DNA from: Aestuariivirga sp.
Lineage (GTDB): Bacteria > Pseudomonadota > Alphaproteobacteria > Rhizobiales > Aestuariivirgaceae
Assembly (NCBI RefSeq): GCF_047600585.1
Contig: NZ_JASGKP010000001.1
Coordinates: 3,213,823-3,277,822, forward strand
Direction of reading: 5' to 3'
Length of the DNA: 64,000 nucleotides
In this document: positions 3,096 to 9,153 of the stretch, piece by piece
Layout: each line of letters begins with the position of its first letter
Numbering within the stretch: the first letter of the stretch is position 1
Made by a program: the position numbers and the translations under genes
Notes under the pieces: model-generated
Told to the model about the DNA's origin: nothing
Database searches by the model: none
The model's input: only the letters and a program-made list of their open reading frames with translations

Positions 3096-3544
3096 GGACG
3101 CCAGCCAAACGAGAGAGACACGGCCCCGGCGCGCGGGACATCCTGAGCGCCGAATTTCGCAAGCAGCAGCGTCCTCGCCTTCGGGTTCAGGAGATGCGTC
3201 AGCTCATCGAGCTTGGCGCCACCGCTCGGGCTTTCCACCGCGCCTTGGTCACCGGTTTCTGTACGCCTGGTGCATTCGATCTGCGGAAGGCCATTCGGCC
3301 GTTGTCCCGTCCGAATTTCGGAGAAGGGCCTGTCCTGACGTTCCAGAGCTACCTCGACAGACGAGCGTGCGAGCTCGTGCCGAGAGATATGGACACGGAG
3401 AACCTTGCCCTCCGGGTCGCCTTCGGAGAGCCGCTGCTTCTGCAGGAACAGCTGCATCTCATTCGGGCGGCCGGGATTGCTGAGCAGTCCAGGATGGCGG
3501 CAGCGAGGATATCTCCGGCCAAGGTCAAACGGAGGCCGAAATGA
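3092..3544 (+). CDS. Hypothetical satellite protein
   Basis: GTG start overlapping the HTH stop (GTGA); stop overlaps the next ATG (ATGA). It is the C-terminal part of track ORF 1937-3544. Confidence 0.6.
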   Translation: MRTPAKRERHGPGARDILSAEFRKQQRPRLRVQEMRQLIELGATARAFHRALVTGFCTPGAFDLRKAIRPLSRPNFGEGPVLTFQSYLDRRACELVPRDMDTENLALRVAFGEPLLLQEQLHLIRAAGIAEQSRMAAARISPAKVKRRPK

Positions 3545-4359
3545 AGCTCATCGCAAAAGCGAAGCAGGCTCCCGAAGGAGCCTGCCCGGCGTCTGAGGCG
3601 CCTCGAATCCACTCGGCAGGCTTTACTGCCCGGATCAGCTGCAGTGCCAAGACACGCGAGTTTCCTGGTGCCTGCCGGCGTTCTTGCCAGAAACGCAATC
3701 GACCGCGGATTTGGGCACGGCCGACGTCTTCGAAACTGCAGTGTGCGTGGATGCGTGTCGAGAGAGATTTATGCATGCAGAACAGCAACCATAAAGCGAA
3801 ACAGGCCCCCGAAGGAGCCTGCCCGATGCATGGTTTCCGTTTCACTTCCTCGAGCAGCTGGGTGCCCCATGAACGTGAAATCGAACCGGCGGTGGTTCGC
3901 CGTTCCGTGCCATCTCGCACTTGGCTGCACCTTGTGCGGCGAAACCGGTCCTTGGAGAAGCCGGGATTCGCGACGGCAAATATGCAGGCCATTTGGCAGA
4001 GTGTCGAGACTTCTAGGCCCGTGGACAGCAGACAGCAGGCCCTCGGAAGGGCCCGCTTGACGATGGGGGCAAATCAGAACATGTTGTCAGCGGGCTTAGA
4101 AACCCTGACAACGATAGAGCTGGAAGCGGTTGGCGCCGCATTCGAGCTGACGCGAGCAACCTTCACGGTTGCCGCAGCGAAGCGCCTTGGCGGGCGCTCC
4201 ACACCCGTCCTTTATGGCCGGGGGAGAGCGCTATGTCCAGAGCTCACGCTTAAAACCGCTCTGCCTGTCTCGTTGCAGGTTTCTAACCCCCGGCTTCCAG
4301 GTCCGCCACCTGGAGCAACGGGCCTTAGAAAGCCCTTCGACAACGAGGACTCCCCATGA
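3541..4359 (+). CDS. Uncertain hypothetical ORF; internal start at 3775 possible, and the 3' part overlaps a regulatory RNA region
   Basis: ATGA overlaps at both ends; contains the duplicated peptide KAKQAPEGACP. The 3' third coincides with a promoter-like site and structured RNA, so the coding extent is doubtful. Confidence 0.35.
   Translation: MKLIAKAKQAPEGACPASEAPRIHSAGFTARISCSAKTREFPGACRRSCQKRNRPRIWARPTSSKLQCAWMRVERDLCMQNSNHKAKQAPEGACPMHGFRFTSSSSWVPHEREIEPAVVRRSVPSRTWLHLVRRNRSLEKPGFATANMQAIWQSVETSRPVDSRQQALGRARLTMGANQNMLSAGLETLTTIELEAVGAAFELTRATFTVAAAKRLGGRSTPVLYGRGRALCPELTLKTALPVSLQVSNPRLPGPPPGATGLRKPFDNEDSP
3556..3825 (+). repeat. Two 33-nt direct repeats (3556-3588, 3793-3825), each containing a hairpin
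   Basis: AAAGCGAAGCAGGCTCCCGAAGGAGCCTGCCCG vs AAAGCGAAACAGGCCCCCGAAGGAGCCTGCCCG (31/33 identical); stem CAGGCTCC-CGAA-GGAGCCTG. Confidence 0.85.
4212..4313 (+). ncRNA. C4/CI-like antisense RNA (phage P1 C4 / P4 CI type immunity switch)
   Basis: Starts TTATGGCCGGGG. GCCGGGGG(4217-4224) pairs with CCCCCGGC(4287-4294), AGAGCG with CGCTCT, and there is a terminal hairpin CCAGGT-CCGCC-ACCTGG. The segment TCGTTG-CA-GGTTTCTAA (4270-4286) is complementary to sites at 4096-4114 and 4325-4346. Confidence 0.65.
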
Positions 4360-4685
4360 ATATCTCCCGCCGCGACTTTGTCGCCGGCTGCGGTGCACTC
4401 ACCGTAGCTTCCGTTCCCGCCCATGCAGACGAACCGGAAATCTCCGAATTCGTCACGCGTGTCGAATCCTGCGGTATGACGATTTTTGCGACCACGCTCG
4501 AAGGAGTGCCGGCGCTTCATCTCCACATTGATCTCACGGTCGAGTCGCCAGATTTGGAGGTCGACCGCGATGAAGTCTTCGAGCAGCTGGCCGCATGGAA
4601 GAAGCTCTCCGACTGGCAAAAGCGTCGACAGAGGATCATCCACTATCTCGTCACCACCGGCCGCAGTTATGGGGTGACGGTATGA
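4356..4685 (+). CDS. Small hypothetical protein with a twin-arginine-like signal peptide
   Basis: RBS GAGGA at 4345-4349; N-terminus MNISRRDFVAGCGALTVASVPAHA (SRRxF, hydrophobic stretch, AxA). Confidence 0.7.
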   Translation: MNISRRDFVAGCGALTVASVPAHADEPEISEFVTRVESCGMTIFATTLEGVPALHLHIDLTVESPDLEVDRDEVFEQLAAWKKLSDWQKRRQRIIHYLVTTGRSYGVTV

Positions 4686-4861
4686 AGCGCCTCACCCGTC
4701 GACGGACCTGGGCGAGCTTCCAGCAGAGAGAGAGGCGCGGACTTGTCCGCGCCTTCAGTCTCCGCCTCCCCCGAAAATTTCAAGCGAACAGGTGTTATTC
4801 AACTGCATCTCATCTCCCGGTGCACCGTCCTGCTCCTCACGATCCGCGGGGTGCAAAATGA
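4682..4861 (+). CDS. Small basic hypothetical protein
   Basis: ATGA overlaps with both neighbours (MKRLTRRRTW...). Confidence 0.5.
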   Translation: MKRLTRRRTWASFQQRERRGLVRAFSLRLPRKFQANRCYSTASHLPVHRPAPHDPRGAK

Positions 4862-5169
4862 AGCCGTCGCGCAAAATCGATTTCGCCCGGATCAATGCCC
4901 GAGCGCTCGCAAGTGCAGACTCCATCCTCGTCCGATGGCTGCCAGACGGCCGCCGCGAAGGCACTGAATGGGTAGCCCTGAACCCGCGGCGCAGCGACAA
5001 GCGCCGGGGATCCTTCAAGGTCAACCTCCACACCGGGAAGTGGGGTGACTTCGCTGCCGGCGCGAGTGGTGGTGATCTCGTCTCGCTCGCGGCCTACCTC
5101 TTCGACCTCGGCCAAGGAGAGGCGGCCCTCAAGGTGTCGGACATGTTGGGAGTGGACCCACATGTCTGA
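4858..5169 (+). CDS. Primase N-terminal (zinc-binding-domain-like) protein, stand-alone
   Basis: WLPDGRREGTEWVALNPRRSDKRRGSFKVNLHTGKWGDFAAGASGGDLVSLAAYL is typical of satellite/phage primase N-domains. Confidence 0.75.
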   Translation: MKPSRKIDFARINARALASADSILVRWLPDGRREGTEWVALNPRRSDKRRGSFKVNLHTGKWGDFAAGASGGDLVSLAAYLFDLGQGEAALKVSDMLGVDPHV

Positions 5170-7342
5170 CCCCTTCGCTCCGATCCATACCGCCGATGAC
5201 CCTCCGCGTTCTAAGGCGAAGCAGGATACCTGGGAGGTCATCTCACCAGTTCCTGACGAAGCTCCCGCTCCTCCCGCTGAGCACTACTCACGAGGCAAGC
5301 CGTCCCGCAGCTGGCAGTACCTGGATGCCACAGGGAAGCTCCTCGGCTTCGTGTGGCGCTTCGACACTGAGGAAGGTGAAAAGGAGTTCCTGCCGCTCAC
5401 CTACTGCCGCAAGGCAGACGGATCGGGCGCCAGCTGGAGGTTCAAGTCCTGGACCGCGCCGCGCCCGCTCTACGGGCTCAGGAAGCTCGCTGTCTCTCCG
5501 TTCCCGGCGGTTCTAGTCTGTGAGGGTGAAAAAGCTGCAGACGCGGCCCAGAGGCTCCTGCCGGACCTTGTAACGGTCACCAGCCCGGGAGGGTCAAAGG
5601 CGGCCACAAAGGCAGACTGGAGCTCGCTGGCCGGGCGGGACGTGGCCATCTGGCCAGATAACGATGCTGCCGGCAAAGACTATGCGGAACAAGTTGCCCG
5701 CTTCGCCCGAAAGGCCAAGGCCATTTCGGTGGTGGTAATCACGCCGCCGGCCGGCGTTGCACAAGGTTGGGATGCGGCCGACGCGGAAGCGGAGGGTTTC
5801 AGCCCGGACCACCTGAAGGCACTGATCGATGGCGCCAAGGTTCTCAATCGCGAGTCTTCAGACGCCGCCGATGAAAAGCCCGAAGATGACGAGCCCAAGC
5901 GGCGGAGGCCCCGCCAGTCGACCGAGACTATTGATCTCCTCGACAGCCTTGATGTCGAGTTTTGGATTGATCAGGACGGTGAAGCCTTCGCAAGTGTTCC
6001 CGTGAATGGCCACTTCGAGAACAGGTCACTCAGATCGAAGGAGTTCAAGAGATGGCTCGCTGGCCAGCAATACCGCGCCACCGGTGGCGCCATCAGCTCA
6101 CAGGTGCTAGAGGACAGCCTTCGCGTGCTGGAAGCGCGAGCCTCGATCGATGGCCAGCAGTACGACACCTGGCGCCGTGTCGGGGAACACAGCGGGAAGA
6201 TCTACATCGACCTTGGCGATGCCTCCTGGCGAGCCGTCGAAGTGACGTCGCTCGGATGGAAGGTCATCAGCAATCCGCCCTGCAAGTTCATCCGCGGTAG
6301 CGCAATCCGCGCACTGCCGGAGCCCCTTATGGGCGGCTCAGTGGATGCTCTGAGGGGGTTCTTCAATTTTGAGAGTGACGATGAGTTCCAGCTGTTGGTC
6401 ATGTGGACCGTTCAGGCGCTCCGATCAAAAGGACCCTACCCGGTTCTTTGCATCAATGGCGAGCAAGGCTCTGGCAAAAGCATCCTGACGCAGGTGCTGC
6501 GATCGCTGACCGATCCGAACGGCGCTCCACTACGCGCTGCGCCCGGCGACGATCGGGACCTCTTTGTGATGGCAAACAACGCATGGGTCCTTGCCCTCGA
6601 CAATCTCTCCAGCATTTCCGAATGGCTGAGCGACGCACTGTGCCGGGTTTCAACTGGTGGCGGCTTTTCCACCCGTACCCTGCACAGCGACAAGGACGAG
6701 ACATTCTTCTATCTGCAGAGGCCGATCATCCTCAATGGCATTCCCTCACTCACGAACCGGCCGGATCTAGCAGATCGATCGGTGTCCCTCTTCCTCAAGG
6801 CAATGCCGGCCGGCAGACGGAGAGCGGAAGAAGAGTTCTGGAAGGACTTTGACAAGGCCGCGCCCGAGATCCTCGGGGCTCTGCTTGACGGTGTCTCGGC
6901 CGGCCTTCGCAATGTCGACAAGGTCAAGATTGCGGAAGTTCCCCGCATGGCAGATTTTACAAAGTGGATGTTGGCAACCGAGCCTGGCCTTGGTTTCAAG
7001 GAGGGATCCACCTTCGCAGCCTACCAAGAGAACCGTCGAGAGATCTCCGAGACGACTTATGAGGCCGATCCAGTCGCGGTGGCGATCGCCAACCTTGCCA
7101 AGCACAAGGGCAGTTTGGATTGTGGTGTCTCCGAGCTACTGACTATGCTCAACGATGCCTCTCCCGAAGCGCTACGCAAGTCCAGGAGCTGGCCCGCGAG
7201 CCCAACCGGTCTCGGCTCGAAGATCCGGCGAGTCGCTCAAGTCCTCCGCGATCAAGGATTCCTGATCGATTTCGGTCACTCCGGGAAGCGCTTCGTGCGG
7301 ATCATTGCGCCGGCTGAATTGGAGCTCCAGGCTGGGAGGTAG
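5162..7342 (+). CDS. Toprim primase - P-loop helicase fusion (satellite replication protein)
   Basis: Toprim VLVCEGEKAADA...IWPDNDAAG; Walker A NGEQGSGKS; ALDNLS; IILNGI; RPDLADRS. Start ATG 5162 overlaps the upstream ORF. Confidence 0.88.
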   Translation: MSDPFAPIHTADDPPRSKAKQDTWEVISPVPDEAPAPPAEHYSRGKPSRSWQYLDATGKLLGFVWRFDTEEGEKEFLPLTYCRKADGSGASWRFKSWTAPRPLYGLRKLAVSPFPAVLVCEGEKAADAAQRLLPDLVTVTSPGGSKAATKADWSSLAGRDVAIWPDNDAAGKDYAEQVARFARKAKAISVVVITPPAGVAQGWDAADAEAEGFSPDHLKALIDGAKVLNRESSDAADEKPEDDEPKRRRPRQSTETIDLLDSLDVEFWIDQDGEAFASVPVNGHFENRSLRSKEFKRWLAGQQYRATGGAISSQVLEDSLRVLEARASIDGQQYDTWRRVGEHSGKIYIDLGDASWRAVEVTSLGWKVISNPPCKFIRGSAIRALPEPLMGGSVDALRGFFNFESDDEFQLLVMWTVQALRSKGPYPVLCINGEQGSGKSILTQVLRSLTDPNGAPLRAAPGDDRDLFVMANNAWVLALDNLSSISEWLSDALCRVSTGGGFSTRTLHSDKDETFFYLQRPIILNGIPSLTNRPDLADRSVSLFLKAMPAGRRRAEEEFWKDFDKAAPEILGALLDGVSAGLRNVDKVKIAEVPRMADFTKWMLATEPGLGFKEGSTFAAYQENRREISETTYEADPVAVAIANLAKHKGSLDCGVSELLTMLNDASPEALRKSRSWPASPTGLGSKIRRVAQVLRDQGFLIDFGHSGKRFVRIIAPAELELQAGR

Positions 7343-7496: not shown

Positions 7497-7691
7497 ATGA
7501 CGAATCTGAAGACGAATGATCAGCTGCTGAGGAAAATGAGGTCAGCTGCATCGAAAAGCCTCACCGCCGAAGAGCTCCGCCAACAGAAAATCTCTTTCAT
7601 CATGGCCAATTTTGATGAAGAGAGTTCGGTTACTCGCGATTACGTGGGTGCCGTCCTGGACAAGCAGGATGGCCGCAAGTCGGCAGCGTAA
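7497..7691 (+). CDS. Small protein upstream of Fic (putative antitoxin/partner)
   Basis: 64 aa, RBS AGGGAAG; its stop TAA directly abuts the GTG start of the Fic gene. Confidence 0.65.
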   Translation: MTNLKTNDQLLRKMRSAASKSLTAEELRQQKISFIMANFDEESSVTRDYVGAVLDKQDGRKSAA

Positions 7692-8417
7692 GTGATAATC
7701 TTCGAGATCACCGGCAGGGAGGACAGTCCCGCGTACCGGGATCTCGAAGTATCTAATGGCGAGAGGCAATTCGACTTCCTCCGATCAACGGTGGCAGCCT
7801 CACTCGCGTTGAAGCGCCCTTTTATTTCCCAGCATCTTTTGAAGGCCTTGAATTTCCATGCGATCGCCTGTTTGCACACCAGTGCAGGCGAGTTCCGTCC
7901 CTGCGAGGTGACAGTCGGCGCGTACAGGCCTCCGTCTCCTCACCGCGTCCAGGCTCAGATGGATGACTTCATCAATCAGGTCAACAGAGCCTGGGAGACG
8001 GCAGATCCTGTTTTCCTCGCGTGCTATGTACTGTGGCGTCTCAACTACATTCACCCGTTCATCAATGGCAATGGGCGGACCGCCCGCGCCGCCTGTCTGT
8101 TCGTGCTTTGTGTGAAGGCCGGTGGCTGGTTGTCCGGTGAACCTATCCTACCAGATCTTCTGAAGCGAGAACGAGCCAACTATGTCGCCGCCCTTCAAGT
8201 CGCTGACCGAACTTTCGAAGCTACGGGAGATGCCGATCTCAGGCTCCTACATGGCCTCGTCGCCAGTCTGCTTTATGAGCAGCTCAACGGCGTAAGGGAT
8301 GAGCCTCAAGTCGATGAGCCTGCTGCCGCAGCTCCTGTCGTGGAGAATAACATCGATCCGGAAGAGATCCGCCCGCGGCGGGAACCCGACGACAATGACG
8401 CTGCTGTCCAAGAATAA
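7692..8417 (+). CDS. Fic/Fido domain protein
   Basis: Motif HPFINGNGRTAR; acidic C-terminal tail. Confidence 0.9.
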   Translation: MIIFEITGREDSPAYRDLEVSNGERQFDFLRSTVAASLALKRPFISQHLLKALNFHAIACLHTSAGEFRPCEVTVGAYRPPSPHRVQAQMDDFINQVNRAWETADPVFLACYVLWRLNYIHPFINGNGRTARAACLFVLCVKAGGWLSGEPILPDLLKRERANYVAALQVADRTFEATGDADLRLLHGLVASLLYEQLNGVRDEPQVDEPAAAAPVVENNIDPEEIRPRREPDDNDAAVQE

Positions 8418-9076: not shown

Positions 9077-9153
9077 TGGTACAGCCTCCCAGGCTTGAAC
9101 TGGGGACCCCCAGATCCACAATCTGGTGCTCTAACCAACTGAGCTAAGGCTGC
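9077..9153 (-). tRNA. tRNA-His (GTG), lacking encoded G-1, with A73
   Basis: GCAGCCTTAGCTCAGTTGGTTAGAGCACCAGATTGTGGATCTGGGGGTCCCCAGTTCAAGCCTGGGAGGCTGTACCA; anticodon loop TT-GTG-GA; CCA encoded. Confidence 0.97.

Follow-up and report, generated by a model that had tools for sequence, protein, structure and literature searches.

What is encoded between positions 4057 and 4355 of a 64,000-nucleotide (nt) window of the Aestuariivirga sp. genome, directly ahead of a small open reading frame (ORF)? The window is the whole stretch of DNA that we analyzed, and genome-wide checks cover the complete 3.96-Mb genome. The original prediction for this locus was an antisense-RNA switch of the C4/CI type, with one target upstream and one downstream of the RNA on the same transcript, the downstream one lying on a ribosome-binding site, and with a role in satellite immunity. 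A handful of enterobacterial phages have made the C4/CI mechanism a textbook example. We find that the region is very probably a complete C4/CI-type antisense-RNA control module on a mobile island. Five lines of evidence support the predicted arrangement of RNA and targets: a fold with the C4 layout, alignment to both C4-like Rfam models, covariation of the helices across 63 relatives, conservation of the −35 position and, most tellingly as we read the comparison, co-variation of a two-part address within the RNA (a' and b') with both flanking sites.

The core of the module is a predicted RNA of about 84 nt, which comprises the following features.

4216-4299, forward strand: C4/CI/sRNA-Xcc1-type RNA, delimited by its fold, Rfam alignments and covariation
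4216-4224 with 4287-4295, forward strand: closing stem of the RNA, 9 base pairs (bp), from the fold
4225-4262, forward strand: hairpin 1 of the RNA, long, with conserved AUGUCCAG...UAAA, from the fold
4263-4280, forward strand: hairpin 2 of the RNA, from the fold; its loop CUCGUU (4269-4274) is b'
4280-4286, forward strand: single strand UUUCUAA, which is a', from the fold
4296 and 4297-4299, forward strand: U4296 and then CCA, after the closing stem
4296-4314, forward strand: hairpin UCCAGGU/ACCUGGA just 3' of the RNA, overlapping the CCA and with no U-tract

A multi-stem RNA had been proposed at about 4212-4313; such a fold is present, with its bounds moved to 4216-4299, and the segment UCGUUG-CA-GGUUUCUAA lies within it at 4270-4286, as proposed. 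Folded alone, positions 4205-4315 reach −47.2 kcal/mol (z = −4.0), and none of 200 shuffles was equally good. The hallmark C4 layout, in which a closing stem surrounds two hairpins, the second of them with b' in its loop, and a' lies in the unpaired strand on the 3' side, is found here in the fold, in the covariation among 34 relatives and in end-to-end Rfam alignments. At Rfam gathering thresholds, two tRNAs are the sole matches in the window. In a permissive scan, the sRNA-Xcc1 and C4 models both aligned with the locus from end to end (4210-4303), scoring 31.8 bits for sRNA-Xcc1 (RF02221; E = 0.003; cut-off, 53 bits) and 20.4 bits for C4 (RF01695; E = 0.64, 4210-4301; cut-off, 45 bits). The covariance-model check suggested with the original prediction thus came out in part: both models align, and neither reaches its curated cut-off. 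Genome-wide, the locus was the best sRNA-Xcc1 match (E = 0.002) and was absent from among the top C4 matches. The RF01695 model recovered its positive controls, P1 c4 (68.8 bits) and P4 CI (74.9 bits). Because both scores are sub-threshold, the locus does not attain formal Rfam membership; its architecture is nonetheless that of the C4 group.

Both sites that the RNA is predicted to recognize are found on the same strand, one on either side of it, as expected of a C4 system.

4083-4114, forward strand: a1b1 target hairpin, the predicted 5' end of the transcript, from sequence and fold
4096-4104, forward strand: a1, UUAGAAACC, in the loop and 3' stem of the a1b1 hairpin
4109-4114, forward strand: b1, CAACGA, on the 3' side of the a1b1 hairpin
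4320-4349, forward strand: a2b2 target, from sequence and a pattern search
4325-4331, forward strand: a2, UUAGAAA, in the loop of a small GGGC/GCCC hairpin (4320-4335)
4341-4347, forward strand: b2, CAACGAG, overlapping the Shine-Dalgarno sequence GAGGA (4345-4349)

The claimed leader hairpin, GUUGUCAG/CUGACAAC with CUUAGAAA in its loop, is present at 4083-4112 (fold z = −3.6), target 1 is present at 4096-4114, and target 2 is present at 4325-4346, followed by GAGGA and the ATG at 4356. We add one refinement, namely that target 2, like target 1, displays UUAGAAA in a hairpin loop. Both targets fit the RNA perfectly, over 9 + 6 nt at the first and 7 + 7 nt at the second. In the manner of P1, target 2 extends into the first gene's ribosome-binding site, with b2 ending 8 nt before the ATG. 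The pattern TTAGAAA-N(2-12)-CAACGA has three matches in the window, which are the two targets and the antisense of RNA segment 4270-4286, and it is expected 0.00 times in dinucleotide shuffles. Across the genome, the full two-part site is confined to these places. The published c4-a1b1 motif is a conserved hairpin 5' of the C4 RNA that bears a1 and b1. The upstream hairpin here, with a1 in the loop and b1 at the 3' side, may correspond to it; no Rfam model for that motif matched at E ≤ 10.

Relatives of the RNA are widespread among Alphaproteobacteria. A BLAST-type DNA similarity search of 201 genomes of the family returned short chance matches only, and phage and plasmid collections held no DNA match to the locus. 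A first covariance model, built from this single copy, matched in 35 of 401 genomes of the order (~9%; 23 of 149 genera), with E down to 4e-13; this order-level search gave no match within the genus or family to which the source organism belongs. With 34 of the order-level matches as its basis, a second model matched in 83 of 401 genomes of the class (~21%; 76 of 308 genera), with up to ten copies in some genomes. None of the relatives tested against Rfam reaches a cut-off, with sRNA-Xcc1 scores ranging from 34.9 to 49.7 bits. We conclude that the switch is a genuine additional member of the C4/CI/sRNA-Xcc1 kind. Its wiring is the canonical P1-like one, and its branch of the family escapes Rfam.

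The helices of the RNA are maintained by compensatory change. Across the alignment of 34 relatives, pairing holds in 96.1% of cells, and changes on both sides occur at 22 of 27 pairs. These counts are somewhat inflated by the fitting of the alignment to a model from this copy's predicted fold, with margins that are still large. The covariation score of 0.699 compares with 0.244 for shuffles (0 of 500 reach 0.699) and 0.04 to 0.14 for slid partners, and all five helices contribute to it.

We regard the co-variation of the targets with the RNA as the decisive evidence. In a strict test, which required an exact 7-mer plus 5-mer, the cognate upstream flank matched in 21 of 30 distinct copies and only 5 of 870 mismatched RNA/flank pairings did so; downstream, the figures were 10 of 30 and 2 of 870. 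A relaxed test (6-mer plus 5-mer) on 58 distinct copies from both searches gave 55 of 58 cognate matches upstream, versus 34 of 3306 for non-cognate pairings, and 13 of 58 versus 16 of 3306 downstream. These exact-match tests were used in place of a duplex-energy comparison of cognate and non-cognate targets, which was dropped as noisy in the GC-rich flanks. Furthermore, RNAalifold run on an independent, plain MAFFT alignment of 12 whole leaders yields a consensus with a1:a' pairing and compensatory changes; one a1:a' column pair is AU in six sequences, GC in five and CG in one.

The 12 leaders belong to loci with what we call the class I layout, comprising the window and 11 others of the order, in which a1b1 lies 86 to 139 nt upstream and a2b2 20 to 56 nt downstream of the RNA. 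Among them are 9 different a' and 10 different b' sequences. Each locus matches its own address, over 8 to 9 nt at a1, 5 to 7 nt at b1 and 6 to 8 nt at a2, and 11 of the 12 match over 7 to 9 nt at b2. In these 11 loci, b2 ends 5 to 10 nt before the ATG, the position of a Shine-Dalgarno sequence. The exception is locus L076, where the b2 match is 4 nt and ends 14 nt before the ATG, and where the b sites match over 4 to 5 nt only.

These results bear on the idea that the RNA is a general trans-acting small RNA directed at chromosomal host genes, with the flanking complementarity incidental. Its closest Rfam model is indeed sRNA-Xcc1, which is reportedly a trans-acting RNA under HrpG/HrpX control and was first described in those terms (Chen et al. 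2011, cited in PMC12189769). Yet the full two-part target occurs genome-wide only beside the RNA, changes in the RNA go together with changes in the flanking sites among 58 distinct copies, and a' and b' are unconserved, unlike what a fixed host target would demand. We consider a host-gene regulator of this sort highly improbable.

A cognate a1b1 lies upstream in 61 of the 63 family members, and a2b2 is found nearby in 14. Most copies have a class II layout, in which a1b1 alone is nearby, ~50 to 55 nt upstream, and at times they form tandem arrays. Three copies at locus L053 and two each at L046 and L048 are spaced by ~500 to 600 nt; each tandem copy has its own a1b1, and the addresses differ in part. 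The main rival to a C4/CI-type antisense RNA is a purely cis-acting two-state leader with no free trans RNA. Within a single transcript, pairing of a' and b' with a1b1 would keep the ribosome-binding site open and the gene on, and pairing with a2b2 would cover that site and turn the gene off; folding kinetics or some factor would set the balance. The preponderance of a1b1 over a2b2 in the family fits such a leader, and both the minimum-energy fold of the whole 291-nt leader and the RNAalifold consensus of class I leaders pair a1b1 with a'/b'.

The ends of the RNA speak for its excision. N-CCA follows the closing stem directly in 45 of 63 copies (20 of 34 and 25 of 29 in the two sets), and a U stands at −1, before the first paired G, in 54 of 63 (28 of 34 and 26 of 29). 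Together with the closing stem, these are sequence hallmarks of an RNase P substrate, and P1 c4 is reportedly such a substrate (Hartmann et al. 1995, cited in PMC11143913). A conserved tRNA-like end of this kind is the signature of an excised RNA rather than of a leader acting in cis. The founding members of the group, P1 c4 and P4 CI, act in trans once processed, and private addresses that differ among elements make sense for discrimination between elements. Note that a cis switch and a trans-acting product can coexist. As a complete account, we judge the purely cis-acting leader to be unlikely, and we favor the C4/CI-type antisense RNA.

The leader upstream of the RNA has features that recur in many class I loci.

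4038-4053, forward strand: GC-rich hairpin GGCCC-UCGGAA-GGGCC, immediately 5' of the −35 box, from sequence
4057-4085, forward strand: promoter-like region, with −35 TTGACG (4057-4062), a 17-nt spacer and a weak −10-like CATGTT (4080-4085)
4070-4077, forward strand: conserved CAAATCAG box, between the −35 and the weak −10
4126-4198, forward strand: leader spacer with three hairpins, two of them with UUGGCG (4126-4139 and 4181-4198) and one GCAACC/GGUUGC (4156-4172)

The promoter-like TTGACG is thus where it was claimed to be. In 11 of 12 class I loci, a −35 box (CTTGAC, CTTGTC or TTGAT) precedes the a1b1 hairpin by ~32 nt and is usually followed by a weak −10; the a1b1 hairpin therefore probably forms the 5' end of the transcript. 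A simple sigma-70 scan did not call the putative promoter at 4057-4085, as its −10 matches at only 3 of 6 positions. About half of the class I loci have the CAAATCAG box in common, and it may serve as an operator or extend the promoter. An equivalent of the GC-rich hairpin is found just 5' of the −35 in most class I loci, and the hairpin at 4038-4053 probably shields the module from transcription that arrives from upstream. Between a1b1 and the RNA, most class I loci have one to three hairpins with UUGGCG, a motif that amounts to a UGGC tetraloop closed by U-G. Their stems covary, and they may serve as a protein-binding or processing signal. The hairpin that follows the RNA (4296-4314) likewise shows compensatory changes in class I loci (columns 278-284 with 292-298 of the RNAalifold/MAFFT alignment). 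We rejected pairing between the UUGGCG loops and the loop of this hairpin, as the complementarity is seen in this copy alone. We also rejected as a gene the 272-amino acid ORF that spans the module (3541-4359), which has no family match and whose reading frame is broken by indels in relatives.

Compared with known systems, the module is closest in wiring to the c4 RNA of P1 and P7 (RF01695; immI operon). There, too, a closing stem encloses two hairpins, with b' in a loop and a' in a single strand, and an upstream a1b1 and a downstream a2b2 are placed on one transcript, where a2b2 covers the first gene's ribosome-binding site. The ends also have a motif in common, UAU directly followed by GG...CC-NCC(A), to which P1 c4 aligns with UUAU followed by GG...CC-ACC. 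Run without filters, the alphaproteobacterial model has its top match in the P1 locus exactly on c4 (10.7 bits) and a weak match exactly on P4 CI (7.8 bits); neither is significant, and their placement suggests a distant kinship. There are also differences from P1 c4. The RF01695 score is 20.4 bits here versus 68.8 bits for P1 c4, hairpin 1 is much longer and carries the conserved AUGUCCAG...UAAA, the leader has the extra UUGGCG hairpins, and in place of icd/ant the switch is followed by an orphan ORF whose N-terminus is Tat-like. The host also differs, being alphaproteobacterial, from those of the published motifs, which were listed for Proteobacteria and phages (c4) and for gamma-proteobacteria and phages (c4-a1b1) (Weinberg et al. 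2010, PMC2864571). None of the papers searched combines "c4 antisense" with "alphaproteobacteria".

P4 CI is a small RNA processed from an untranslated leader, with one pairing site upstream and one downstream (PMC4825925), and the layout is the same here, where processing is predicted. Like CI, the RNA precedes small ORFs and a primase in an element with a P4-type integrase at a tRNA gene. P4 uses premature transcription termination, whereas here the RNA has no terminator after it and the downstream site, like that of P1, is placed on a Shine-Dalgarno sequence. Capsid-redirection genes as in P4 were not identified here, and no dedicated search for them was made.

The best-scoring Rfam model, sRNA-Xcc1 (RF02221), represents RNAs of Xanthomonas and Xylella integron cassettes and islands with the same layout of closing stem, two hairpins and single strand. 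In Xanthomonas cassettes, sRNA-Xcc1 lies upstream of symE, a gene that it may control (bioRxiv 10.1101/2025.06.18.660453), and a Xylella genomic island holds a five-copy tandem array of it (PMC12189769), which the arrays at L053, L046 and L048 resemble. All matches in our set fall below 53 bits; sRNA-Xcc1 has been described as a trans-acting, virulence-regulated RNA and not as an immunity RNA; and its setting is gamma-proteobacterial integron cassettes, as opposed to the tRNA island here. Despite the same architecture, RF02221 is not listed in the C4 clan (CL00128). With its position upstream of the toxin gene symE, sRNA-Xcc1 may be an immunity or antitoxin-type relative of C4, not a general trans-acting RNA.

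The module resides on an island with the attributes of a mobile element. The island and its principal genes within the window are as follows.

9077-9122, reverse strand: 3' part of tRNA-His, the right end of the island, with an exact 46-bp repeat at genome positions 3206561-3206606
4356-4685, forward strand: orf4356, the first gene under the switch, 109 amino acids, with a twin-arginine-like N-terminus (MNISRRDFVAGCGAL...)
4858-7342, forward strand: primase region in two overlapping frames, with a 103-amino acid N-terminal piece (4858-5169) and a 765-amino acid Toprim/primase ORF (5045-7342)

The left 46-bp repeat lies 7.2 kb to the left of the window start, giving an island of ~16.3 kb, and it is adjoined by a P4-type integrase gene (Arm-DNA-bind_3 and Phage_integrase). 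G+C content is 55 to 60% within the island versus 65 to 69% outside. The switch is accordingly located as C4-type systems are, on a mobile element recognizable by its tRNA-His site, 46-bp repeats, integrase and primase. A third copy of the repeat (48 bp, 94% identical) lies 109 kb further left (C1:3104819-3104866 in the genome) and may mark an older or larger composite island. P4-like satellites are marked by a P4-type integrase, an alpha-type primase-helicase and helper-exploitation genes (psu, delta, sid, epsilon). The island has such an integrase and a Toprim primase; for the helper-exploitation genes, no family match among the scanned ORFs points to them, and no search aimed at them was made.

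The product of orf4356 has no Pfam or PHROG match and no homologue among 5.8 billion protein clusters. The first ORFs after the switch in class I loci (the window and L066 to L076) encode unrelated small proteins, 4 of 12 of them with twin-arginine-like N-termini (the window, L068, L071 and L075). Those of L066, L067, L069 and L070 are acidic, with repeated (D)EPSLG/EPSLC motifs; that of L072 is related to that of L070 and is without the motif. On its 3' side, orf4356 is followed by a strong hairpin (4732-4754; −23.5 kcal/mol; CUUG loop) that has only a weak U-tract behind it and may terminate or attenuate transcription ahead of the primase genes. The Toprim primase matches phrog_239, and the Methylobacterium plasmid pM44602 has the same two-gene layout, a separate 102-amino acid gene followed by a 678-amino acid gene; the split may accordingly be natural and not a frameshift. 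When tried as an anchor for finding relatives, the primase led to one metagenomic locus and the Methylobacterium plasmid, neither with the RNA, and so the module has no fixed link to the primase. Where the island approaches the tRNA, positions 7497-8417 hold a 64-amino acid ORF that abuts a Fic/Doc-family gene (Pfam Fic, 4.4e-18), probably as a toxin-antitoxin or addiction pair. Just beyond the island lies a Ros/MucR gene, which, like the best plasmid matches in Methylobacterium, fits an alphaproteobacterial host.

Elsewhere in the family, the same kind of module is found in ever-changing company. Clustering of the neighborhoods of 13 loci shows that proteins are almost never common to them, and so the contexts are mosaic. 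Relatives adjoin tyrosine or serine recombinases, and the operons that follow class I switches carry such recombinases or an AAA_25 helicase-like ATPase. We conclude that the module is a portable regulatory cassette of mobile elements.

The island itself could raise the suspicion that the structure arose by chance or is a decayed, functionless remnant, since the downstream ORF is an orphan, the primase is in two frames and no close relative of the island was found. Against this, all elements are intact, from the −35, a1b1 and the helices to N-CCA, a2b2, the Shine-Dalgarno sequence and the ATG. Both targets remain perfect (9 + 6 and 7 + 7 nt) at positions where the family varies freely, the target pattern has a chance expectation of 0.00, and the comparative data already contradict such an origin, to which we give next to no credence.

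Several observations do weigh against our reading of the locus as a C4/CI-type antisense module, besides the inflation of pair counts given above. Both Rfam scores lie below the curated cut-offs (31.8 versus 53 and 20.4 versus 45 bits). In the precursor, the CCA is paired within the following hairpin (4296-4314), and some class I copies are without CCA. Most of the family has a1b1 alone nearby, which a cis switch fits as well as a trans-acting RNA does. The status of orf4356 as a gene depends on its Shine-Dalgarno sequence, ATG and position, given that it is an orphan. The hairpin at 4732-4754 may already separate orf4356 from the primase, which weakens the case for control of the replication genes.

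We propose the following mechanism. A predicted promoter at ~4057-4085 would start a leader transcript, with the a1b1 hairpin as its first element. By analogy with P1 c4 and P4 CI, the ~84-nt RNA (4216-4299) would then be excised from this leader. RNase P is the most likely enzyme, cutting between U4215 and G4216, because the closing stem and U-CCA mimic a tRNA acceptor end. Once freed, the RNA would display b' in the hairpin 2 loop, with a' unpaired next to it. On transcripts from elements of its own type, its first contact would be the a2 loop, and pairing with b2 would follow. In P4, CI RNA pairs with seqA, the upstream site, and seqC, the downstream site (PMC4825925). Pairing at b2 would cover the Shine-Dalgarno sequence of orf4356 and block its translation. 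A polar effect of the kind seen in P1 and P4 is probable, such that transcription would end before the primase genes. The element would thereby stay quiescent and a second, incoming copy would be silenced, which amounts to immunity. The a1b1 hairpin may either hold a' and b' paired in the unprocessed transcript or serve as a second target. The two short variable sequences would act as an address that sets the specificity of immunity, and the RNA may, as the original prediction had it, control satellite immunity.

A wider reading, which we put forward tentatively and think doubtful, is that a1b1 and the RNA form a portable, freely re-addressable antisense cassette, in wide use among Alphaproteobacteria and their mobile elements, that would provide barcode-like immunity or exclusion among competing elements in about one-fifth of the sampled genomes. 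Copies without a nearby a2b2 and the tandem arrays with differing addresses would then act in trans on other elements, such as helper phages or rival islands, as a multi-specificity RNA immunity array and not as switches of single operons.

The C4/CI mechanism itself is not new. This copy shows complete P1-like wiring in an alphaproteobacterial island and represents an alphaproteobacterial branch that lies beyond Rfam. The family annotates many "intergenic" regions beside integrases. It also suggests that sRNA-Xcc1, described as a virulence-linked trans-acting RNA, has its place in the same superfamily of immunity RNAs. Because the two-part address is particular to each copy and reflected in that copy's targets, mobile elements that are mutually immune could be predicted from sequence alone.

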